This document shows positions 3,232-53,990 of a stretch of 64,000 bases of DNA, in pieces. Numbering within the stretch: position 1 is the first letter of the stretch; the number at the start of each line of letters is the position of its first letter. The translations under genes were made by a program, and so were the position numbers. The DNA is from an uncultured Chloroflexia bacterium (GTDB taxonomy: Bacteria; Chloroflexota; Anaerolineae; CG2-30-64-16), in the NCBI GenBank assembly GCA_963810095.1, contig CAWEMM010000009.1:608001-672000 (forward strand). The letters run 5' to 3'. A model generated the notes under the pieces. The model saw only the letters and a program-made list of their open reading frames with translations, made no database searches and was not told where the DNA came from.

Positions 3232-3458
3232 ACGGCACGCTCCTTCGCGTAGGATGACTCAGTTGTCACACTCCAGCGATGTACGCCGGGTGAATTCCGA
3301 CACAGGCAATTGTGACAAGTTCTTCAAGTGTTGGGACTGTCGTTGCACGGACCCTTTGCTCGCCTGCATTGAGGCCGGGGGAGCGTATCGAGGTCGGTTT
3401 CCGATCGTGTGGTAGAATGGCTGAATTGTCGCTTCCCTATTGTTCGAAGGAGGGCATC

Positions 3459-4301
3459 ATGACCCGCATCGTTGCGGACACCACTTGCGGCCTGCCGCCT
3501 GAGCTGTACGGGCGGCTCGGCATCCCTATGATTCCCCAGGTAATCAATTTCGGTGACGAGTCGTTTCGCGAGGGCGTGGACATGGACGCGGCTACATTCA
3601 TGGCCCGCCTGCGCACGGGGAAGGAGATGCCGAAAACCGCAGCGCCATACCCTGGTGATTTCATCGACGTCTTCCAGGAGTGTGTGCGAGAGGGGGAGAG
3701 CGTCGTCTGCGTGCACCCTACGGCCGATCTGAGCGGCACGGTTCGCTCGGCCGAGATCGCGAAGAACGATTTTCCCGGCGCCGATATCCGCATCATCGAC
3801 ACGCGGCTGGTGGCGGGCCCGCTTGGTTCACTGGTCCTCGAGGCCGACCGGCTGGCCAAGCAGGGGGCCAGCGCGGACGAGGTAGAAGCACGCGTTCGGG
3901 AGATGATGGTGCGGGGCAAGATTTACTTCATCGTGGACACGCTCGAGTTCCTGCGCCGGGGTGGCCGGATTGGCGGCGCGCAAGCTCTGCTGGGCTCGGT
4001 GCTGCAGATTAAGCCGATCCTGACGCTGGTCAACGGGCGTATCGACCAGTTCGAGCGCGAGCGCACGAAGAAGAAGGCCCTGGCCCGCCTCACCGAACTG
4101 GTGCTGCAAGAATCGGCGCGCGGCGCGGAGGCGCACATCAGCGTGAACCATGCCGACGCCCGTGACGACGCCGAGGAACTGGCGGCCGAGCTGAAGCGCC
4201 GGCTGGGCACCGACGACGTGCTCATCCTGGACATGCCACCGGCCATCGTCACCCATGCAGGACCCGGTTTATTGGCGGTCGGCTTCTTCGCACCCGCGTG
4301 A
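3459..4301 (+). CDS. DegV family fatty-acid-binding protein
   Basis: RIVADTTCGLP, PKTAAP, LSGT, IIDTR, VDTLEFLRRGGRI, IKPIL, THAGPG motifs; SD AAGGAGG. Confidence 0.93.
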   Translation: MTRIVADTTCGLPPELYGRLGIPMIPQVINFGDESFREGVDMDAATFMARLRTGKEMPKTAAPYPGDFIDVFQECVREGESVVCVHPTADLSGTVRSAEIAKNDFPGADIRIIDTRLVAGPLGSLVLEADRLAKQGASADEVEARVREMMVRGKIYFIVDTLEFLRRGGRIGGAQALLGSVLQIKPILTLVNGRIDQFERERTKKKALARLTELVLQESARGAEAHISVNHADARDDAEELAAELKRRLGTDDVLILDMPPAIVTHAGPGLLAVGFFAPA

Positions 4302-4309
4302 GGGCAGCC

Positions 4310-5431
4310 ATGACACTAAACATCGCCACGGTCGACACGTCGTCGCGGCGCGACGTCGATCGCTTCATCTTGCTGCCCTGGGCCATCTACCAGGGCACCC
4401 CCCAGTGGGTACCGCCGTTCGTCGACGACACCCGGTTGATGCTCAACCGCAAGAAATATCCCTTTTACCAACACTCCGACGCCGATTTCTTCGTGGCCCT
4501 GCGTGACGGCAAGCCGGTCGGACGCATCGCGGTGTTGGATAACCGTCATTACAACCAGCACTGGGGCAGCCACACCGCGTTCTTCTACCTCTTCGACGCC
4601 TTCGACGACGCCGGGGCCGCCGCCGCACTCTTCGCTCAAATCGAACAGTGGGCCAAGGGCCGCGGGCTCGACAAGATCGTCGGCGCGAAGGGCTTCCTGC
4701 AGGGCGACGGCATCGGGGTACTGGTCGAGGGGTTCGAGCATCACCCTGCGGTTGGCATCCCCTACAACCATGCCTACTATGGCAAGCTTATCGAGGCGGC
4801 CGGTTACCTGCCCCAGCGCGACTTCCTCTCCGCCTACCTGCCGGGCAAAACGGTTCTGCCAGAGCGGCTGCACCAGATTGCGGCGAAGATGATGGAGCGC
4901 CGCGGTTTTTCCATCCGCACCTTCGCCAACAAAAAAGAGCTGACGGCTTGGATTCCGCGCATCGTGCAGACTTACAACGACACCTTCGTCAACAACTGGG
5001 AATTTAACCCGGTGACCGAGGCCGAAGCGAAGGTCATCGGCGACCGGCTGCTGCAAATCGCAGACCCGAGGCTGATCAAGCTCGTTATGAAGGGCGACGA
5101 CATCGCCGGCTTCCTGTTCGGCTTCCCAGATATTTCGGATGGCATCCGCAAGGCCAACGGCCGCCTCTGGCCGCTCGGATGGATTCATCTCTTGCGCGAC
5201 ATGAAGCGGACGAAGTGGATCAATCTCAACGGCGCCGGCATCCTTGCGCCGTACCGGGGCCTGGGCGTCAACGCAATTCTGTACGTGGAGATGGAAAAGA
5301 CGATGCACAGCGGCGGCTTCGATCACGCCGACCTGGTCCAGATGGAAGAGCACGTGCTGACCGTGGAGGACACGAAGACGATGGGCGGCACGATCTACAA
5401 GAAGCACCGGATCTATGAAAAAACCATCTGA
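4310..5431 (+). CDS. YghO/bCerS-like GNAT-fold N-acyltransferase
   Basis: FILLPWAIY...WVPP...PFYQH...VGRIA...GVLVEGF...PYNHAYY...NNWEF...GFPD...NGRLWPLG...YRGLG pattern. Confidence 0.75.
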   Translation: MTLNIATVDTSSRRDVDRFILLPWAIYQGTPQWVPPFVDDTRLMLNRKKYPFYQHSDADFFVALRDGKPVGRIAVLDNRHYNQHWGSHTAFFYLFDAFDDAGAAAALFAQIEQWAKGRGLDKIVGAKGFLQGDGIGVLVEGFEHHPAVGIPYNHAYYGKLIEAAGYLPQRDFLSAYLPGKTVLPERLHQIAAKMMERRGFSIRTFANKKELTAWIPRIVQTYNDTFVNNWEFNPVTEAEAKVIGDRLLQIADPRLIKLVMKGDDIAGFLFGFPDISDGIRKANGRLWPLGWIHLLRDMKRTKWINLNGAGILAPYRGLGVNAILYVEMEKTMHSGGFDHADLVQMEEHVLTVEDTKTMGGTIYKKHRIYEKTI

Positions 5432-6659
5432 GCCAAGGCCCGCCGAGCAGGCCGGACCCAAGCGAGTGTTGATCCTGTCGGCCGATGCGGGCTTCGGGCA
5501 CAAAGCAGCCGCCAATGCGATTGCTGCCGCCTTTGCGTCCGGCTTCCCCGGCCGCGCCGAGGCCACGATCGTGAATCCGCTCGACCACGACAACGCGCCG
5601 GGCCTGCTCGTCTCCGCACAGGACGACTACGACCGGATGATCCAACAGGCGCCTGAGGTGTACCGGGTGGGCTACCAGGCGTCGGACGGTGCAATCCCTG
5701 CTGGAATCGCCGAGCAGGCGCTAGCGCTCATGATGTTCAGCGTGCTGCGCGACATCCTGAGCACCCACCGGCCCGACGTCGTGATCACCACCTATCCCCT
5801 GTACCAGGCCGCGCTCGCCACACTCGCCGCGGTCTCGCGCAAGAGCGCACCTTTCCTCACCGTGGTGACCGACCTCGCGACGGTGCATCGCCTGTGGTTC
5901 AATGAAAGCGCGCAGATGTGCCTGGTGCCAACTGAGGCCGTTGCCCGCAAGGCGCTCGAAAGCGGCCTGAGCGCCGAACGGGTGGAGATCACGGGCCTGC
6001 CGGTGAACCCACAACTGGGGCGACCGGTCGATAAGGCGGCGCTGAGGGCGAAGCTGGGTTGGCGCAGCGACCGGGTGGTCGGGTTGTTCACGGGCAGCAA
6101 GCGGGTGAAGAAGCTCGAGCCGGTCGTCCAGGTGTTGAACCATTCCGGGCTGCCGCTTGAACTGGCCATCGTCGCCGGCGGAGACGAAGCGCTCCGAGAG
6201 CGCCTCGCGTCCGTGGAGTGGCACCAGCCCGCGCACGTCTACGGGTACGTGGACAACATGGTCGAACTGATGCAGGCCGCCGACTTCATCGTCTGCAAAG
6301 CGGGCGGGCTCATCGTGTCGGAGGCGTTGGCCGCGGGCCTGCCGCTCCTGATCGTCGAGGCGCTGCCGGGCCAGGAAACCGGCAACGTCGAGCACGTGAT
6401 GCAGGGCGGCGCGGGCGTGTTGGTCAACGACCCGGCCGAAGCGCTCGTCCAGGTGTTTCACTGGCTGGACAACGAATGCGCCGCGCTGAAGGTCACGGCC
6501 CAGCACTCGCGGGCCATCGGGCGACCGGACGCGGCGATTCGGGTGGCGGAGCGGGCGCTGGAAATAGCGGCCCGCGAGCCTCGGCCGGTGGGTAGAGGCC
6601 TCTCGGCGCAGCTGCCGAGGTTACGCGAGCTGCTGGGGCTGACACCGGGCGAGGCATAA
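5415..6659 (+). CDS. MGDG synthase/UgtP-like glycosyltransferase (GT28)
   Basis: ILSADAGFGHKAAA, VVTD, TGLPV, GYVDNMVELMQAAD, KAGGL, PGQETGN motifs. Confidence 0.9.
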   Translation: MKKPSEPRPAEQAGPKRVLILSADAGFGHKAAANAIAAAFASGFPGRAEATIVNPLDHDNAPGLLVSAQDDYDRMIQQAPEVYRVGYQASDGAIPAGIAEQALALMMFSVLRDILSTHRPDVVITTYPLYQAALATLAAVSRKSAPFLTVVTDLATVHRLWFNESAQMCLVPTEAVARKALESGLSAERVEITGLPVNPQLGRPVDKAALRAKLGWRSDRVVGLFTGSKRVKKLEPVVQVLNHSGLPLELAIVAGGDEALRERLASVEWHQPAHVYGYVDNMVELMQAADFIVCKAGGLIVSEALAAGLPLLIVEALPGQETGNVEHVMQGGAGVLVNDPAEALVQVFHWLDNECAALKVTAQHSRAIGRPDAAIRVAERALEIAAREPRPVGRGLSAQLPRLRELLGLTPGEA

Positions 6660-6683
6660 GCGCAACGGGCGCCCCAGTGACGG

Positions 6684-7396
6684 CTACTCGGGGCGCCACT
6701 CTGCTTCCCGCGCCAGCGCGTCGAGCGCGGCGTTCTGCGCGGCAAGTTGCTTGCTGGGCCCCTCACCTTCGCCGTACACCGTGTCGCCAATGCTGACCTG
6801 GACGCGGAAGACTTTTGCGTGGTCGGGCCCCTCGGCAGAAACGGTCCGATAGCGGGGCGTGACGCCGAGGCCCGCCTGCGCCATCTCCTGCAACCGGCTC
6901 TTTGGGTCCTTGTCCTCGACCTCGGTCCGCGCGCCCCCATCTCCCCCTGCATCATCGGGATCACCCAATTCGAAACCGCGGTCAGGTCCTGGTCGAGGTA
7001 GAGCGCGCCGACGACGGCTTCGAAGGCGGCACAAAGGGTAGCCGGCCGCTGGCGGCCGCCCGTTTCCACCTCGCCGTGCCCCATCAGCAGCGACTGGCCG
7101 ATGCCCAGCTTGACGGCGAGCCGTGAGAGGGTTTCGCGGCGCACGAGCGCAGCGCGGAGGCCGGTCAGCTCCCCCTCCGAGGCGTTGGGGAAGGACTCGA
7201 AAAGAAAATCTGCCAGCAGGAAATCGAGCACTGCGTCGCCGAGGTACTCCAACCGTTCGTTATCTTCCCAGTCCACCTCGGCATGTTCGTTCAGATAGGA
7301 CCGGTGCGTGAGCGCCGTGCGCAGCAGTGCCCGGTCCTTGAAAGACACGCCGTTTCGCCCGGCAAATTCGTCCAGGATTTCGTCTACACCCTGCAT
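6684..7396 (-). CDS. rnc: Ribonuclease III (frameshift near 6935, probably a sequencing error)
   Basis: ALTHRS, NERLEYLGDAVL, FEAVVGALYLD in one frame; dsRBD DPKSRLQE...GPDHAKVF...GPSKQLAAQNAA in the next frame. Confidence 0.93.
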
Positions 7397-7514
7397 GCCC
7401 GTCTCCCTTGCTTTAGTTGACGGGCAAGTATAGCACGGCCGGCCTGGCTTGTCATTCGTGCGGCGAACAAATGACAAGTCACGCCGCCTGGCCCTTCCTG
7501 CCGGGGCCCCTTAT

Positions 7515-9263
7515 CTACTGACCCGCCTCGTCCGAGCTTTCCAGGAACTTCTGGATCTTCGCCTTCACGGTTGCCTTCTTCCCGGGATAGTCCTCGAAGG
7601 TCTGCTTGTGCCGGTTGAAAGCTTCCGAATAGATGTTGTCCATGAAGGTCTGGCGGTTGAAGAAGCTGTACCGCTCTTTCGGGTCCAGGAACAGGTTGAA
7701 CAGCCGCGGCGACGGATAGCTTTCGAGGGTGGTTGAGGCTTCGCCGTTGATCACGTCGAAGTCGTCGAAGGCCATGCCGGCAGACATGAACTTGTACTCT
7801 GCCACCCGTATCCCGCTAAAGGTGCTGCCCATCCACAGGTAGACGTACTTTCGATTTGACAGGCTGTCATCGGTCAGCAGGAATGAGGTCTGGTCGATGC
7901 TGTCCATGTACTGCTCTTTCGGCGGCCGGTACTGCACCCCCGCCAGGTCGAGCGAGGTGAGAAACAGGTCGGAGAGGTCGAACATGCCAATGCTCTGCTG
8001 GCCCGGTGTGATCATACCCTTCCAGTACGCAACCAGCGGCACCCGTACGCCGCCTTCCCACGTACAGCCGATGCCGCCCCGAAACGGCGTCCAGCCCGCA
8101 TCGGGCCAGGGTTCCATCATCGGGCCATTATCCGACGTGACGATGATCAGCGTGTTCTCCAGCTGACCGGTGTCTTCCAGCGTCTTGACGAGCCGCCCGA
8201 CCGCGTCGTCCAGTTCCACGAGGCAATCCTTGTACGGGTACTTGGCCAGCGATTTGCCCTTGTAGTCCGGATTGGGATAGTTCTTGACGTGGTTGCCGCG
8301 GGAACAGTGGTACAGGAACCAGGGCTGTTCGCCCTCGGCCATCTTCTTGATGAAGTCCTCAGAGTAGGTGGTAAACATGTCGTCGAGCTGGGCGCTCAAC
8401 TCGATGGTGACTTCTTCCACATTCTCCAGCGGCTTGCCTTTGACTGCGTGCACGACGTTAGGGTTGAACCCCACCGTCTTCACATACGCCTGCCGGTCCG
8501 GGCTGAGCGCAAACTCGGGTGCGAACGTTTCATCCTGCCAGTCCGTGTAAAGGCCCGACCAGCCGAGGAAGCCGTAGAAGTCGTCAAAGCCCACGTTGTG
8601 GGGTTGCGATTCGACGTTCTCGCCGCAGTGCCACTTGCCCACGGCCTGGGTGAAGTAGCCGTTTTCGCTGAGCACCCGGGCGACCGTGGTCTCGTCATCG
8701 AGGACGCCCGGCTCGCCGGCAAAGCTCGGCCGCAGCGCGCCCGTGCGCATGGGCAGCCGGCCCGTGAGCAGCGTGCAGCGTGTGGGAGTGCAGGAAGGCT
8801 GCGAATAGGCGTACATGAGCTGCAGGCCCTCGCGGCCCAAGCGGTCGATGTTGGGAGTTGGCGCGCCGGCCATCGCCCCGCCGCCATAGATACCCCAGTC
8901 GCCGTAGCCCACGTTGTCCATCAGAAAGATCAGGATATTCGGCTTCTTGCCCGTCTTCTTCTCCAGCGCGGCCAGCTTCTGCTTCGCGGCAGCCGCTTGG
9001 TCGTCGTGGGGGATGACCGGCTCCATGTTATCCGCCACCTTTACGGTCGTGGCGGCCAACGGGTCGGTGCTGCTGCCTGCCTGCAGCCGGCTCAGCACAT
9101 TCTCGTGGAGTTCTCGGGGGAACGGAACGCCAACGGGCCGGGCTGCTGACCTCGCGCTCGCGGCAGCGCCTGCGACCCCGGGGGTGAGGCCCGCACCTGC
9201 GCTCAGGGCCACTGCGCCCGCGCCACAGACTTTGGCGAACTCACGACGCGAAAGCTTCTTCAT
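7515..9263 (-). CDS. Tat-exported arylsulfatase (Cys-type)
   Basis: MKKLSRREF twin-arginine signal; KPNILIFLMD, SCTPTR (CxPxR), GKWH, SDNG, WEGGVRVP motifs; SD AGGAGG. Confidence 0.92.
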   Translation of the reverse strand: MKKLSRREFAKVCGAGAVALSAGAGLTPGVAGAAASARSAARPVGVPFPRELHENVLSRLQAGSSTDPLAATTVKVADNMEPVIPHDDQAAAAKQKLAALEKKTGKKPNILIFLMDNVGYGDWGIYGGGAMAGAPTPNIDRLGREGLQLMYAYSQPSCTPTRCTLLTGRLPMRTGALRPSFAGEPGVLDDETTVARVLSENGYFTQAVGKWHCGENVESQPHNVGFDDFYGFLGWSGLYTDWQDETFAPEFALSPDRQAYVKTVGFNPNVVHAVKGKPLENVEEVTIELSAQLDDMFTTYSEDFIKKMAEGEQPWFLYHCSRGNHVKNYPNPDYKGKSLAKYPYKDCLVELDDAVGRLVKTLEDTGQLENTLIIVTSDNGPMMEPWPDAGWTPFRGGIGCTWEGGVRVPLVAYWKGMITPGQQSIGMFDLSDLFLTSLDLAGVQYRPPKEQYMDSIDQTSFLLTDDSLSNRKYVYLWMGSTFSGIRVAEYKFMSAGMAFDDFDVINGEASTTLESYPSPRLFNLFLDPKERYSFFNRQTFMDNIYSEAFNRHKQTFEDYPGKKATVKAKIQKFLESSDEAGQ

Positions 9264-9480
9264 GGAGTCCTCCTGGGGGTGAATGGGACTGCTTCCGCCG
9301 AAGTCCTCAGGACGAGAAGGCTCCCGCCGGCTGATCTCGGCGCAGATCGACCTGTGGATTATAGCACAACGCTTCCAGGCCGTGTCGCCTAGATTGCGTG
9401 GCCCGCCCAGACTTCGCAGTCCCGCCCGCAGTTGGAGCTCGCTGCACCCGCGTGTATAATACGCCTGCAACCAACGGCAG

Positions 9481-9508
9481 CCCCAGCCTCACCCCGGCTG
9501 GGGTTTTT
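9481..9508 (+). terminator. Terminator-like hairpin in the ftsY leader
   Basis: CCCCAGCC-tcacccc-GGCTGGGG-TTTTT, 20 nt after TATAAT (9455-9460). Confidence 0.5.
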
Positions 9509-9546
9509 GTCGCACGCCATCAGGCGCAAAGACATGGAGCAAGGGC

Positions 9547-10497
9547 ATGGGTTTTGGCTTTTTTCGCAGGACGCCGCAGCAGCAGGCCGAGGACCAGGAG
9601 AAAATCCAGCAGAGCCTGGCCAAGACGCGGCAGGGCTTCTTTGGTCGGGTCAGCACGCTGTTCCAGGCCAACGAGATCACCGACGATACGTGGGACGAGC
9701 TCGAAGAAATCCTGATCCAGGCCGACCTGGGGATTAACACCGCGCTAGGCGTGGTCGAGCGGCTGCGGGCGCGGGTCGAGCGCAACCACCTGAAGCGCGT
9801 CGACGACGTCAAGGCGGCGCTGAAGGACGAGTTAGTCAACTTGCTCGACCACCCGCCGCTCACCAACATCGACGAGCCGCGCATGCTCACCGTCGTGCTC
9901 ATCGTCGGCGTCAACGGCTCGGGCAAGACCACGAGCATCGCGAAGCTGGCGAAGTACTACAAGGCCCGCGGCAAAAAGGTGGTGCTGGCCGCGGCCGACA
10001 CGTTCCGAGCGGCCGCCATCGACCAACTCAAGATTTGGGGCGAGCGCACCGGAGTCGACGTGATCGCGCAAGGGCCCGGCGCCGACCCCGGCGCGGTGGT
10101 CTACGACGCGATCCGGGCGAGCCAGGAAACGCGCTCGGCCGAGCTGCTCATTATCGATACCGCGGGCCGCCTGCACACGAAGTACAACCTGATGAAGGAA
10201 CTGGAAAAGGTGCATGCGGTCTGTGCGCGGCAGGTACACGAAGCGCCGCACGAAACCCTGTTAGTGCTCGACGCGACGACAGGGCAGAACGCGATCAGCC
10301 AGGCCAAGCATTTCAAGGAAGCAGTCGACATAACGGGCATCATCCTGACCAAGCTCGACGGCACGGCCAAAGGCGGGATCGTGTTTGCGATTCAGGAAGA
10401 GCTGGGCGTGCCGGTGCGCTTCATCGGCACCGGCGAAAAGGCCGACGACTTCGCGGAGTTCGACCCGCGGGCGTTCGTCGACGGAATTATGGGCTAA
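9547..10497 (+). CDS. ftsY: SRP receptor FtsY
   Basis: [44 protein letters not shown] motifs. Confidence 0.97.
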
Positions 10498-10503
10498 CCT
10501 TCT

Positions 10504-10571
10504 GTAGGGGCGAGGCATTGGGGAGGACATCTGGCCGCGGCCAGACGTCCTCCCCAATGCCTCGCCCCTAC
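10504..10571. repeat. GTAG-type REP-like palindrome
   Basis: GTAGGGGCGAGGCATTGGGGAGGAC...GTCCTCCCCAATGCCTCGCCCCTAC, a near-perfect 68-bp palindrome. Confidence 0.85.
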
Positions 10572-10590
10572 GACACGAAAGGATTTAGGC

Positions 10591-11698
10591 ATGGACGAAA
10601 TTCGCGGGCATCTTCAGTCCCTGGCTGACCAGGTCGACGGGATGCGGAGGCGTCTTTGACTTAGCGGGCAAGGCCGCTGAGATAGACCGGCTGGAACAGG
10701 AATCGGCCAGCCCCGAGATATGGAGCGACCCCAACCGCGCCAAGGTTGTGATGCGCGAACTGTCCGCGCTGCGTGAGCAGGTGGCCGTGTGGGACAAGAT
10801 GACGCGCGACGTGGAAGACGCGCAAGCCCTGCTCGAGCTAGCCGAAGAGGCGGGCGACGAAGAGACGGCCACCGAAGCGGCGGGGCACGCAGCCGAGCTT
10901 CAGAAGCGCTATGAGTCGCTCGAGTTCCAGCTCGCCATGGCCGGGCCTTACGATCGTAGCGGCGCCATCCTCTCAATCCATGCGGGCGCAGGTGGCACCG
11001 AGGCTCAAGACTGGGCCTCCATGCTGCAGCGCCTGTACCTGCGCTGGGCCGAGCGCCGCGGCTTCGACGCCGAGATCACCGACCAGCTCGAAGGCGAAGA
11101 AGCGGGCATCAAGACGGTCACCATCGAGGTCGTCGGTCCTTTTGCGTACGGCCATCTCAAGGCGGAGCGCGGGGTGCACCGTCTCGTCCGCATCAGCCCG
11201 TTTGATTCCTCGGCCCGGCGCCACACGTCCTTTGCCCTGGTCGAGGTGATGCCGATCATCGACGAGGACATCGACATCGAGATCAAGCCCGAAGACGTCA
11301 AGATGGACGTCTACCGTTCGGGCGGCGCCGGCGGCCAGCACATGCAGAAGAACTCGACCGCGGTCCGCCTCACACACATCCCCACCGGCACCGTCGTGAC
11401 CTGTCAGAATGAGCGCAGCCAGCTCCAAAACCGCGAGTCCGCGATGCGGGTACTGCGCGGCAAGCTCTACGACATGGAGCTGCAGAAGAAGGAAGAGGAA
11501 GCGGCCCGGATTCGCGGCAAGCATGTCGAAGCGGGTTGGGGCAATCAGATTCGTTCTTACGTGCTGCAGCCCTACCAGATGGTCAAGGACCTGCGCACCG
11601 AGGCCGAGACGGGCAACACGACCGCGGTGCTCGACGGTGAGATCGACCTGTTCATCGAGGCGTGGCTGAAGGACCAGGTGGGCGAAATAGCGGCGTAG
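10591..11698 (+). CDS. prfB: Peptide chain release factor 2 with programmed +1 frameshift
   Basis: ATG 10591 gives MDEIRGHLQSLADQVDGMRRRL then CTT TGA C at 10654-10660 with internal SD GGAGG 3 nt upstream; the +1 frame contains SPF and GGQ motifs. Confidence 0.96.
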
Positions 11699-13522: not shown

Positions 13523-13594
13523 ACCACAAAGACTCGAAGGCACCAAGCGGCACGAAGACTTCGCTGATCCTTCGTGTCTTCGAGTCTTTGTGGT
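13523..13594. repeat. ACCACAAAGAC-family palindromic repeat
   Basis: ACCACAAAGACTCGAAG ... CTTCGAGTCTTTGTGGT (17-bp perfect arms); related copies at 28567, 60049 and 62100. Confidence 0.8.
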
Positions 13595-13661
13595 GAGTAT
13601 CCGAATCCGTCCGATGCACTCGATTCTTGCCGCAACGGGCTTTTCGGGGTATAAACGCTCG

Positions 13662-16600
13662 GTGCGATACCTCAAACAGCTGACCTTACAGGGCTACAAA
13701 ACTTTCGCCTCACGGACGGAGTTTCTTTTCGACGCCGGCGTGACCGCGATCGTGGGCCCCAACGGCAGTGGTAAGTCTAATGTGGCGGATGCTCTGCGCT
13801 GGGTGTTGGGCGAACAGAGCTTCTCGGCACTGCGCGGCAAGCGAACGGAGGACATGATCTTCTCCGGGTCCGAGCAGCGGCCGCGCATGGGCATGGCCCA
13901 GGTCTCGCTCATCCTCGACAACGCCTCTGGTTGGCTCCCCGTCGACTTTGCCGAAGTGGAAGTGTCCCGCCGGGCCTATCGCTCGGGCGAGAACGAGTAC
14001 TACGTCAACGGCAACCGTGTGCGCCTGCGCGACGTGCATGATCTGCTGGGCAGTTCGGGCCTCAGCGAGCGCACGTATACGGTCATCGGCCAGGGCCTTG
14101 TCGACCAGGCGCTGTCGCTGCGTCCCGAGGAGCGCCGGAAGCTGTTCGAGGAAGCCGCGGGCATCACCGTGCACCAGGCCAAGCGCGAGCAGGCCAGCCA
14201 GAAGCTGGCGGATGCCTCCAACAACCTCATGCGGGCTCGGGACATTATCAGCGAACTGACGCCCCGGCTGCGTTACCTCAAGGGCCAGGCTCGGCGGGCG
14301 CAGGAGTACCAGCAGCTCAAGGCGGACCTCGAATCGCAGCTGCGGACGTGGTACGGCTACCGCTGGCGGCAGGCGCTGCTGGCCCTGGCCGGCGCGCGCA
14401 ACCGGGCCGTGGATGCGGCGGCCGCGACGGAAGAGGAAACCGTAGAACTGAACGGCCTGCTCGAGCAGATCGCCGCCCGGCGCGACGAGCGCAACCGGCT
14501 GCGCGACCAGCTCGGCGACTGGCACCGGTCCTCGAGCGCGCTGCACCGCCAGGCGGAGATCGTGCAGCGCGAGCTGGCAGTGCGCAACGAGCAGGTGCGC
14601 CTCTGGCGCGAGCAGGCCGATGACCTCGGGCGCGAGCTGACATACCTCGCGGCCGCGCTCGAAGACGGCAAAGAGCGACTGCAGGCCGCCAAGGCGGAGC
14701 TGGGCCAGGCCCAGGCCGAGCACGCGACGCGCGCTCGCCGGGTGGAAGAGGCGCAGGCCGACCTCCAGCGCCGCGATCGCGAGCGCTCGGCCCAGGTCCG
14801 GGTGTTGGCGCAGGCCGAGGACGGGCTGCTGACGCTCCGCACCCAGCTCGCCGAGCGCCGCTCGCGCCTGGCTCAAATCGCGGACCGCCGGACAGAACTG
14901 ACCGGCGCGGACGCCGAGCAGGTCACCGCGGCGAAGGGTGCGTCGGGGCAGGTTGCCGAAATGGAGGCTCAGCTCAAGACGCTGGGCGCAAAGGCCGACG
15001 AGTTCAGCCGCGCACTGGCGGCGATCGAGCACGACCGGCAGGGCCGCGGGCAGGCGCTGGCCGTCGGCCAGGAGGCCGAGCGCAAAGCCCAGGAACAGCT
15101 CAACGCGGCCCAGCGGGCCGTCTCCCGCCTCGAGGACCAGCAGGACATGCTCGAACGCCTGCGCGACGAGGGTGCGGGGCTGGCGGGCGGCGTCCGGGCA
15201 GTCATGGCCGCGGCGCGCGAGGTCAGCAAACCAGGTTTCTCGAAGAAACCTGGTTTGTCGGGCGAGCAGAAACCTGGTTTATCCCCCCGCGATCACCTTG
15301 ACGGGATTCTCGGGCCCTTGGGCGAGTTGATCCAGGTGCCGCCCGAGTACGAGCGTGCGATGGAAGCCGCGCTGGGCGGCCGGGTGCAGGACGTCGTAGT
15401 GCGGGGCTGGGAAGACGCCGAGGCTGCGGTCGAGTTCCTGAAGCGGAACCAGGCCGGCCGCGCGACGTTCCTGCCCCTCGACACGCTGCGGCCCGGGCGC
15501 GCCGTGGACGTGCCCAAGGCGCCGGGCGTCATTGGCCTGGCAAGCGAGCTGGTCGGCTTTGCCCCGGAGGTTCGAGCGGCGGTCGACCTGGCGCTCAACC
15601 ACACGCTGGTCGTCCAGGACCTGCCCACTGCGCGCCGGCTCCTTAACCGGGGTGGCGGCGCCACGCTGGTGACGCTGGACGGCGAGATCGTCCGGTCCTC
15701 AGGCAGCGTGACGGGCGGTGCGGAAAGCCGGCAGCGCGACGGTGGCCTCTTGCAGCGGGCGCGACAGCTCCGCGAACTGCCCGAGCAAATTCAGCGCGGC
15801 GGCGAAGATCGTCGCGGGGCACGAAAAGCAGATCGCGGACCTACGCAAGGCGCAGGCCGAGGCGCGGGCCGCGTTGGACGCTCTGCGGGCGCGCCGCGAC
15901 GAGCTGAACGCCAGCCAGGCGCGCCTTAACGCCGAGCTCTCCAAGACACAGCTGGCCGCCGAGCGGGCGCGGCAGACCGTGAGCTGGCATGAGGAGCGGC
16001 GCAAGGGCCTGGAGCGCGAGGCCGGCGAGCTGGACCGGCGGGAGAGCGAGCTCAAGGCAGCGATTGCCGACCTGGCTGCCCAGGTGGAGAAGCGCGAAGG
16101 CGTGGTCGACGCGGAGCGCCGCCGGCTCAACGAGCTGTCCGCGGAAGACTACATGGCCGAGGTCGCGCGGCTGCGGGCCGAGGCGGCGGTCAGTGCCGGC
16201 CAACTGCGCAGCCTCGAGGGCCGGGTGCAGGAGCTCCAGCGCGGCCAGGCCGGCCGCGAGCAGGAGATCGCCAGCAAGACTGCCCGCCGTGCGTCTCTGG
16301 GCGGGCAGCAGGCCGAGGCCGCGCAAGCCATCGAAGCACAGAGCGGTGCGGCCGAGGGCCTGGCCGGCGAGATCTCCGAACTTGCGGCGTGCATCGACCC
16401 CGCCGAAGCGCGGCTCGCCGAGCTGGAGAAGAGCAGCCGGGAGACCGAGCAGCAAGAGCGCAGCCTGCGCGAGCAACTGCGGCTGGCCCAGGCCCGCCTC
16501 AACCAGGCCGACCTGTCGGCTCAGCGGGCCCAGGACGAGCTGGCCCACCTCCGCGGCGAGATCGAAAAAGACCTGGGCTTGGTGGAATTGACCCAGTTTG

Positions 16601-53231: not shown

Positions 53232-53990
53232 ATGCCTCCCATTCTGCAGGCGCTTAACCTGCGCATGACCTTCTACGACGCCAACCGGGCCGACATGCTG
53301 GCGCTGGACGACCTGTCGCTGGCGGTGGAGGAGGGCGAATTCCTCGCCATCGTCGGACCGTCGGGCTGCGGCAAGAGCACGCTGCTGCGCCTGCTGGCCG
53401 GGCTGCTGCGGCCTATCTCAGGCCAAGTGCGGTTCCGCGGCGCCCGATGACCGAGCCGAGCCGCGACATCGGCTACGTGTTTCAGCGCGCCAACCTGATG
53501 CCCTGGCGAACCGTGGCAGCCAATATCGCGCTCCCTCTCGAAGTCGCGCGACACCCCGCAGGTGCAGGCAGCCCAGCAGACCGAGGAGCTGATCGCGCTG
53601 GTTGGCCTGGACGGCTTTGCCAACGCCTATCCAGCGCAGCTTTCCGGGGGCATGCAGCAGCGGGTCGCGCTGGCCCGCGCGCTGATCCACGAGCCGACGG
53701 TCCTGCTGCTCGACGAGCCGTTTGGCTCGCTCGACGCGCTGACGCGCGACCGGATGAACGCCGAACTGCTGCGCCTCTGGAACCTGCACCGGCGGACCGT
53801 GGTCATGGTCACCCACAGCATCAGCGAGGCCGTCCTCCTGTCGGACCGCATCCTCGTGCTGACGCCCCGGCCGGGCCGGCTGCGCGCCGAGTTCGGCGTG
53901 CCGCTGCCGCGCCCGCGCAGTTCCGTGCTCACGGGCGATCCGGCCTTTGTCGAGCTGACGCGGGCCGTCCGGGCAGAAATCGTCGACTGA
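53232..53990 (+). CDS. ABC ATP-binding subunit (frameshifts near 53445 and 53550)
   Basis: [30 protein letters not shown] motifs. Confidence 0.9.

Follow-up and report, generated by a model that had tools for sequence, protein, structure and literature searches.

Which lipid might be made by three tightly packed genes that encode a putative fatty-acid-binding protein, an acyltransferase and a lipid glycosyltransferase? This question is raised by a locus at positions 3459 to 6659 of the window analysed here, a stretch of 64,000 nucleotides (C9:608001-672000) from G000, the genome of an uncultured Anaerolineae bacterium. An original prediction, made from the letters of the DNA, had suggested that acyl supply, N-acylation and glycosylation together could yield a glycosylceramide-like or other N-acyl glycolipid. 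Our analysis shows that the acyltransferase, P0002, is a tandem-GNAT enzyme of the same family as Escherichia coli YghO and the type of bacterial ceramide synthase (bCerS) linked to serine palmitoyltransferase (Spt). By its sequence, however, P0002 is placed in a separate paralogous clade, referred to as clade I and widespread among the sampled genomes of Anaerolineae. What is conserved as a functional unit is P0002 together with the adjoining DegV protein, and the MGD1-like glycosyltransferase appears to be a lineage-specific addition. According to the list of open reading frames (ORFs) and their translations, the three genes follow each other on the plus strand:

3446..3454, plus strand: Shine-Dalgarno-like site GAAGGAGGG, 4 nt 5' of the DegV ATG at 3459, read from the DNA
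3459..4301, plus strand: DegV/FakB-type fatty-acid-binding protein P0001, 280 amino acids (Pfam DegV)
4310..5431, plus strand: tandem-GNAT acyltransferase P0002, 373 amino acids, YghO/bCerS-like family, clade I (Q344/H366 type)
5415..6659, plus strand: GT28 lipid glycosyltransferase P0003, 414 amino acids, MGD1/UgtP-like, accessory member of the locus

The tight coupling that had been described for the three genes, an 8-nt gap followed by a 17-nt overlap, is borne out by the ORFs and the DNA. The DegV gene ends with TGA at 4299-4301, the P0002 gene starts with ATG at 4310, and GAGGG extends across the stop codon ahead of this ATG. The ATG of the P0003 gene at 5415 resides inside the P0002 gene, whose stop codon is located at 5429-5431. 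No terminator-like site on the plus strand was found between the three genes, and a weak internal promoter-like match (9/12) is present at 4752-4780, within the span of the P0002 gene.

Conservation of the gene pair

Orthologous loci were defined as the 27 fetched loci with a protein at least 64% identical to P0002, all of which belong to the GTDB family of the window. Here and in the wider comparisons, samples were drawn from GTDB species, mostly of one phylum, and unpublished genomes enter the overall tallies only (phylum sample and Spt matches). In all 27 loci a DegV gene is positioned directly upstream of the acyltransferase gene. The glycosyltransferase gene is present in 17, three of which have about 2.6 kb inserted between acyltransferase and glycosyltransferase, and in most of the 17 the two genes overlap or abut. 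In the remaining 10 loci the acyltransferase gene is directly followed by the genes for RNase III and FtsY, and all five of the relatives lacking the glycosyltransferase gene that were checked (65-99% complete) hold only a glycosyltransferase paralog of 33-36% identity. The three-gene synteny is thus conserved in full for the DegV gene and only in part for the glycosyltransferase gene. Neither an Spt nor a CerR-like match was found near any of the 27 loci.

Outside the family, a DegV gene adjoins the acyltransferase gene in three of 13 loci from other families (44-55% identity), with a DegV gene about 1 kb away on the opposite strand at a fourth locus, and in three of 29 loci of the phylum sample (flanks of 1.5 kb), where the order is reversed and DegV is located downstream. 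A GT28 gene was found beside none of the clade I genes outside the window's family (0/13 other-family and 0/29 phylum-sample loci). Likewise, no recurrent third partner gene was detected among the 53 flanking ORFs of the 29 distant clade I loci or at the four DegV-linked loci of other families; distant clade I genes are flanked by, for example, genes for M29 peptidases or histidine kinases. In two closed genomes (L022 in G258 and L025 in G043), genes for an MFS transporter, a clade I acyltransferase and a DegV protein are arranged in a row on one strand. Lysophospholipid salvage of the LplT/Aas type was considered for these two genomes and found no support, as the MFS proteins match generic anion or sugar-acid models and not LplT.

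The assignment of the flanking genes to DegV and GT28, already proposed from the sequence, agrees with Pfam and with the closest solved structures. P0001 matches Pfam DegV (PF02645) over its full length (residues 2-277; 2.1e-83, 280 bits) and passes the cut-off of TIGR00762 (295 bits, cut-off 99.7), but not that of the NCBIfam equivalog model for FakB1 (159.8 bits, cut-off 350). The solved structures closest to it are DegV 2dt8 (Thermus-type, 9e-48) and then FakB proteins. Among the seven DegV genes of G000, the six others are 30-36% identical to P0001, whereas the DegV proteins that adjoin clade I genes in distant families are 49-55% identical to it, strongly suggesting that P0001 is a dedicated ortholog which travels with the acyltransferase. 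An unlinked ortholog of P0001 (47-50% identity) was identified in three of five checked genomes in which the pair is not adjacent. FakA and PlsX are each encoded by one copy in G000. The single Dak2/FakA match is located on contig C14 beside another DegV gene (C14:225847-228434), so that P0001 is not linked to fakA; a further DegV gene adjoins plsX (C6:1635594-1637539). One of the seven DegV genes is split by a frameshift (C9:410313-411150).

P0003 contains an MGDG_synth domain (PF06925, 1.2e-26) and a Glyco_tran_28_C domain (PF04101, 3e-08). In the PDB it matches Arabidopsis MGD1 (4wyi, 1e-48, residues 14-385) and a processive diacylglycerol beta-glucosyltransferase (1.3e-28), and it does not pass the cut-off of the NCBIfam model for diglucosyl-diacylglycerol synthase, PRK13609 (166.5 bits, cut-off 500). 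Its identity to the product of the other MGDG_synth gene of G000 is 29%.

Two clades of the acyltransferase family

Family membership of P0002 is indicated by its full-length similarity to E. coli YghO (BLASTP, 28% identity over residues 12-373, E 9e-42) and by 31% identity (E 1e-63) to one of its two paralogs in G000, a protein encoded at C6:1383790-1384923 which is itself 37% identical to YghO (E 7e-80) and is linked to an spt gene. Pfam assigns to P0002 the generic Acetyltransf_1 domain alone (residues 52-123, 1.3e-08), YghO itself is without a Pfam or NCBIfam model, and a search of the ESM Atlas returned generic 'GNAT family' clusters only. Structural modeling with AlphaFold2, based on an alignment of 55 sequences, resulted in a tandem GNAT with a pLDDT of 93 and a pTM of 0.90, and the top Foldseek matches of this model are tandem GNATs as well (E 2e-13 to 1e-07, TM 0.4-0.6, 8-14% identity). 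Neither the sequence search nor the fold search retrieved a solved structure from the YghO/bCerS family. The motifs WVPP, VGRIA, EGF..P...YN..YY and NGRL.P.G, which had been named as hallmarks of the middle protein, are all present in the translation of P0002. Residues of P0002 that are conserved throughout the family are W33, V34, P35, G71, G141, N153, Y156, Y157, G284 and P288. In the alignment of 176 rows, the two clades share 38 positions at which one and the same residue is at least 85% conserved, and P0002 carries these residues; they include W33, V34 and P35, H55, Y156 and Y157, Y222 and N223, P234, E239, Y363 and K364, R367, and Y369.

For phylogenetic placement, family members were collected from a sample of 300 genomes of the phylum, 60 relatives, the 80 best-matching loci for the Spt-linked paralog in named genomes, and E. 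coli. Neighbouring genes were labelled by tblastn within 3 kb, with the proteins of G000 and E. coli as queries. The trees are unrooted and stem from quick searches (FastTree; IQ-TREE with LG+G4). In the FastTree phylogeny of 171 rows, clade I with 69 rows (support 99, stem 0.86) is separated from clade II with 101 rows. All DegV-linked rows fall into clade I, as does P0002, and none of the Spt-linked rows does. Clade II comprises YghO, the paralog on contig C6 and the Spt/CerR-linked proteins, and no DegV-linked row; it also includes proteins of cultured Myxococcus and Corallococcus and of Gemmatimonadota, Eisenbacteria, Zixibacteria, Bacteroidota, Acidobacteriota, Nitrospirota and Planctomycetota. 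IQ-TREE, applied to 78 rows, gave an SH-aLRT value of 100 on either side of the split between the clades. The designation of the middle protein as bCerS-like therefore holds for the YghO/bCerS-like tandem-GNAT family, as seen by BLASTP and in the model, and fails for the clade, since both trees place P0002 outside the one that contains YghO and the Spt/CerR-linked proteins, in which the original prediction had expected it.

An identity-based tally of 176 rows, obtained after adding six sequences, yielded a similar picture. Among 73 clade I rows, 34 are DegV-linked (18 of these also GT28-linked), two are Spt-linked and 37 are neither, and among 103 clade II rows, 63 are Spt-linked and none is DegV-linked. 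Accordingly, at the 80 loci from named genomes of many phyla that are related to the clade II paralog, Spt is found within 3 kb in 47 and a CerR-like gene in 45, and a DegV or GT28 match in none. In Myxococcaceae, two adjacent copies of the family occur inside Spt clusters (L114, L123, L124).

The clades can be discriminated by five positions, each conserved within its clade (clade I/clade II): A90/G, F226/W, S276/N, Q344/W and H366/Y. At the six positions of the clade II signature (G90, W226, G231, N276, W344, Y366), P0002 has A, F, E, S, Q and H. In a set of 1.84 billion representatives the family numbers 6033 at E <=0.001 and 835 at E <=1e-30. Among the best 150 of these, 121 are near full length, and a score over the six positions assigns 38 to clade I and 55 to clade II, leaving 28 unclear. 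Of the 60 best full-length representatives (clusters at 50% identity), about 50 have Q344/H366. Three of ten clusters with clade I representatives carry an organism name, in all three cases Anaerolineae or Anaerolineales. The clade-specific residues provide a simple means of separating the clades, as well as targets for mutagenesis.

Fused forms of the GNAT unit were also observed among metagenome representatives. One protein of 1041 amino acids combines it with AMP-binding and PP-binding domains, which indicates thioester donors on a carrier, and another of 648 amino acids joins an oxoamine synthase (AOS) to a GNAT unit. Doubled family units make up ten proteins of about 775-797 amino acids (P0126-P0135), and the two other fusion proteins are P0187 and P0228. 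In the search for fusions, the 10 longer proteins were all doubled family units, and no fusion to DegV or to a glycosyltransferase was found.

A candidate serine palmitoyltransferase cluster outside the window

The original prediction had noted that no serine palmitoyltransferase is encoded in the window and had therefore considered a novel amine acceptor. The statement is true of the window, where no match to class I/II aminotransferases was found, the sole one on contig C9 being at C9:283675-284337. A search of the genome for spt and cerR, as had been proposed, retrieved candidates for both in a cluster on contig C6, so that the lack of Spt in the window is no argument for a novel amine. This cluster (C6:1381544-1385768; L017:7542-11768, minus strand) consists of co-directional genes for an SDR, the clade II bCerS-like protein, an NAD epimerase, which is HpnA-like (314 bits) and CerR-like, and an alpha-oxoamine synthase. 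The best NCBIfam model for the synthase is that of serine palmitoyltransferase, NF047600, to which its two halves contribute 344.6 and 149.5 bits (cut-off 640); the gene is split by one frameshift near L017:8360, whereas relatives have it in a single frame. With an intact relative, NF047600 reaches 534 bits and the BioF or Kbl models about 380. Of the 20 loci fetched for the paralog, 13 keep the cluster, and these are all the loci at least 63% identical to it. Judged by sequence similarity, then, G000 encodes a de novo ceramide-type pathway (SDR, clade II bCerS-like, CerR-like, Spt), and it does so away from the window.

Orthologs of Spt were called in other genomes by comparison with the intact relative, as identities in the phylum sample are bimodal (52-78% versus <=46%). 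A clade I gene is present in 29 sampled genomes; 14 of these also encode an Spt ortholog (>=52%), and the other 15, including G258 and G043, lack one. G258 and G043 are single-contig genomes, about 99% complete, and contain pairs of clade I and DegV genes. Both states occur in a single genus, where Spt is present in G298 but not in G055, G157 or G274, although all four retain near-identical clade I orthologs and share two other oxoamine synthases. Four genomes of the family to which the window belongs were Spt-negative: two are incomplete and two fragmented, and one of the fragmented genomes, G325 (99% complete), has the pair of DegV and P0002.

A different arrangement was observed in class-level relatives of families f2 and f4 (L189-L202), where Spt orthologs are usually located beside an SDR only. 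With the queries used, these loci yielded neither a CerR-like gene nor a bCerS-like gene of clade II. This hints at a different ceramide route in which the SDR would act first and a clade I protein would serve as the acylase. In a member of another Chloroflexota class, genes for Spt, a clade II bCerS-like protein, a UgtP/MGDG-like GT28 and a CerR-like epimerase follow each other in a row (L207, G007:C9:3698-19991, positions 7001-11400). The GT28 protein, encoded between the clade II and CerR-like genes, is 34% identical to P0003 and reaches 178 bits for PRK13609. This locus, the sole case of a glycosyltransferase inside an Spt cluster among about 100 Spt-bearing loci examined, is a candidate glycosylceramide cluster, and the presence of a P0003-type enzyme in it makes the acceptor of P0003 less than certain.

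Further irregular reading frames were noticed in the window. The RNase III gene (6458-7477, minus strand) is split over two frames, with the catalytic domain in ORF 6458-7477, the dsRNA-binding domain in ORF 6684-7034 and an apparent frameshift near 7035-7060, which may stem from an indel in the assembly or mark a broken gene. Taken with the frameshift in the spt gene, this suggests indel errors in the G000 assembly. An SMC-like ORF (13590-15929) of just 779 amino acids and an ABC-transporter ATPase ORF (53562-53990) of just 142 amino acids with a partial ABC_tran domain look truncated as well, perhaps through more frameshifts. CTTTGAC at 10654-10660, 5' of the release factor 2 ORF (10748-11698; PCRF and RF-1 domains), fits the usual programmed +1 frameshift of prfB.

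Possible functions and relation to known systems

Based on these findings, we favour the interpretation that P0002 is a DegV-coupled fatty-acyl transferase for the remodelling or salvage of lipids, distinct from the de novo ceramide synthase, and we would assign to it a probability of roughly 45%. As a standard ceramide gene set is encoded elsewhere in G000, the pair of DegV and P0002 probably makes or remodels an acylated lipid other than a standard ceramide. It might be hypothesized that P0001 binds a particular free fatty acid, which would then be converted to a thioester, either to acyl-ACP by the single FakA and PlsX or via an acyl-CoA ligase, and that P0002 would move the acyl chain, most likely onto the amino group of a lipid-like acceptor. 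This acceptor would not need to be a product of the bacterium's own Spt; candidates are long-chain bases, either made by the cell or scavenged, amino-lipids, lyso-lipids and head groups with an amino sugar, and the module would serve lipid remodelling or salvage instead of de novo ceramide synthesis. P0002 may give an amide-linked product. The MGD1-like glycosyltransferase would most likely make a glycosyl-diacylglycerol or, alternatively, may glycosylate the acylated product. If correct, this would be a first case of a DegV protein that feeds a GNAT acyltransferase; no published description of a DegV-bCerS-like gene pair was found in the literature searched, as judged by titles and the beginnings of abstracts. 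A distinct acyl or amide lipid, should the pair make one, would be a candidate biomarker for Anaerolineae. The bCerS family holds a large paralogous clade that is tied to a dedicated fatty-acid-binding protein and not to Spt, and ceramide synthases would therefore be over-called in Chloroflexota on the basis of homology alone. According to Ding et al. (2024, PMC11334938), sphingolipid surveys identify ceramide producers by bCerS homology with thresholds such as E <=1e-30.

Several observations weigh against this interpretation, and some of them favour the idea that P0002 is a second ceramide synthase isozyme, which would N-acylate the sphingoid base or 3-ketosphinganine from the Spt cluster on contig C6 with acids supplied by DegV, the GT28 enzyme then yielding a glycosylceramide. 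Such an isozyme, which comes close to the original prediction, appears possible but rather doubtful. P0002 shares its family with YghO and the Spt-linked enzymes, and Spt is present in G000 and in 32 of 36 genomes of its GTDB family; due to this near-universal presence, independence from Spt is not demonstrable for the closest orthologs. In G076 and G148, which belong to one genus, a long-branched clade I paralog is located about 1.3 kb from Spt, and in 12 of the class-level genomes sampled, in which Spt usually adjoins an SDR, clade I members were the only ones found, so that some clade I enzymes may be ceramide synthases. The oxoamine synthases of the apparently Spt-less genomes score alike, at about 400-425 bits, for Spt, BioF and Kbl, none of them over the cut-off, and an unrecognised base-forming enzyme might thus be present in these genomes. 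Multiple isozymes do occur, as indicated by the tandem copies in the Spt clusters of Myxococcaceae, and the glycosyltransferase in the Spt cluster of G007 keeps the idea of a glycosylceramide alive. Ceramides and glycosyl-ceramides were also found to correlate with Anaerolineae in the Black Sea (PMC11334938). An adjacent DegV gene is, in addition, missing at 26 of the 29 phylum-sample loci (within flanks of 1.5 kb) and at nine of the 13 class-level loci, and the acceptor, the donor and the choice between N- and O-acylation are, for the clade I enzymes, all features that we infer from sequence. A second isozyme is, however, difficult to reconcile with the lack of Spt and CerR-like genes at all orthologous loci, with the dedicated clade II enzyme already residing in the Spt cluster of G000, with the five residues that discriminate the clades, and with the 15 clade I genomes lacking an Spt ortholog, among them closed genomes with DegV-clade I pairs. 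The glycosylation step is weakened by the 10 orthologous loci that have no glycosyltransferase gene and by the acceptor of GT28 enzymes of the MGD1/UgtP type, which, going by the names of the PDB matches, is diacylglycerol.

The overlap of 17 nt between the acyltransferase and glycosyltransferase genes, along with their overlapping or abutting arrangement in most of the loci that have both, would also agree with an enzyme that acylates the head group of the P0003 glycolipid, giving an N-acyl amino sugar or an O-acyl hexose on a glycosyl-diacylglycerol. The top fold matches of P0002 include glucosamine N-acetyltransferases and mycothiol synthase, which are tandem GNATs acting on amino sugars. 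These matches are, however, generic for tandem GNATs (TM 0.55-0.60, 10-13% identity), the DegV-acyltransferase pair persists without the glycosyltransferase in more than a third of the orthologous loci, where the checked genomes contain no closer glycosyltransferase than the distant paralog, and GT28 genes are absent beside clade I genes outside the family; we thus regard head-group acylation as improbable. Similarly unlikely, in our opinion, is a mere neighbourhood without a shared pathway, in which a generic GNAT acting on a non-lipid substrate, an ordinary FakB and an ordinary synthase for MGDG or MGlcDG happen to be encoded side by side. It would fit the generic Pfam assignment of P0002, the position of the locus amid housekeeping genes (RNase III, FtsY), which keep their order in relatives as well, and the unrelated genes beside most of the distant clade I members, such as those for peptidase M29 and a histidine kinase. 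Against it, the adjacency to DegV is seen repeatedly, in either gene order, in several families and classes, the adjoining DegV proteins form their own orthologous group, and seven DegV genes in a genome of 6.1 Mb make chance adjacency rare; moreover, the relatives in the family are tied to the lipid genes for Spt, fatty acyl-AMP ligase and ACP. A more far-reaching form of the DegV-coupled acyl transfer favoured here may be put forward tentatively: clade I and DegV could represent an unrecognised lipid N-acylation route, widespread in Anaerolineae, in which special or scavenged acids would be transferred onto a non-sphingoid or imported amine, and an amide-linked glycolipid would be formed where the glycosyltransferase is present. 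If true, a new membrane lipid class would exist in bacteria that are highly abundant in sediment and wastewater.

The link of P0002 to bCerS rests on the gene context of YghO and on Spt-linked relatives, with YghO used as a stand-in for the Caulobacter enzyme. YghO is filed with bCerS in InterPro as 'BcerS-like', and the Caulobacter bCerS, CCNA_01212, is the same as CC_1154. DNA of yghO is present in 4549 of 5426 complete E. coli genomes. In K-12, yghO abuts IS5 and genes of an R12-type spt cluster are missing there. In E. coli R12 (L107, NZ_CP107153.1 2008177-2027277), yghO is divergent from an operon for a fatty acyl-AMP ligase, an NAD epimerase/dehydratase, ACP and Spt, with paralogs of lptG and lptF after spt. 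This context matches the sphingolipid region of Caulobacter, for which 10.1101/2024.02.16.580706 names an acyl-ACP synthetase, AcpR, Spt, the dehydrogenase CC_1164 and the N-acyltransferase CC_1154 along with second copies of LptC, LptF and LptG. The lineage of the window had been described in the original prediction as one not known for sphingolipids; this no longer applies, as Chloroflexota were proposed as producers in 2024. Ding et al. (PMC11334938) mention 218 Chloroflexota metagenome-assembled genomes with Spt-like proteins and link ceramides, glycosyl-ceramides and lysine-ceramides to Anaerolineae, with ceramides and glycosyl-ceramides correlated with this class in the Black Sea, and the link between Anaerolineae and sphingolipids is repeated in PMC12619533.

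Compared to these and other known systems, the locus shows both likeness and difference in each of its components. P0001 resembles the FakB part of FakA/FakB systems in being a full-length DegV protein with FakB among its solved relatives, in a genome that also encodes FakA and PlsX; it differs in adjoining an acyltransferase instead of FakA, in remaining below the FakB1 cut-off and in belonging to an orthologous group linked to clade I. P0003 has the MGDG_synth and GT28 C-terminal domains of MGD1 and UgtP and aligns with MGD1 over residues 14-385, but scores far under the curated cut-off for diglucosyl-diacylglycerol synthase. P0002 shares the presence of two GNAT domains per chain with the solved tandem GNATs matched by its model, namely the clavulanate protein CBG (2wpw), a glucosamine N-acetyltransferase from Clostridium (5kf1), MAB_4324 (7q3a), the mycothiol synthase MshD (1ozp), FemX, Eis and N-myristoyltransferase. 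With bCerS and YghO, finally, it has in common a length of about 375-390 amino acids, the tandem-GNAT architecture and the motifs W-V-P-P, Y-Y, Y-N and Y-K-x-x-R-x-Y-E; it is distinguished from them by its position in a separate clade, by the discriminating residues and by a genetic linkage to DegV in place of Spt and CerR-like genes.

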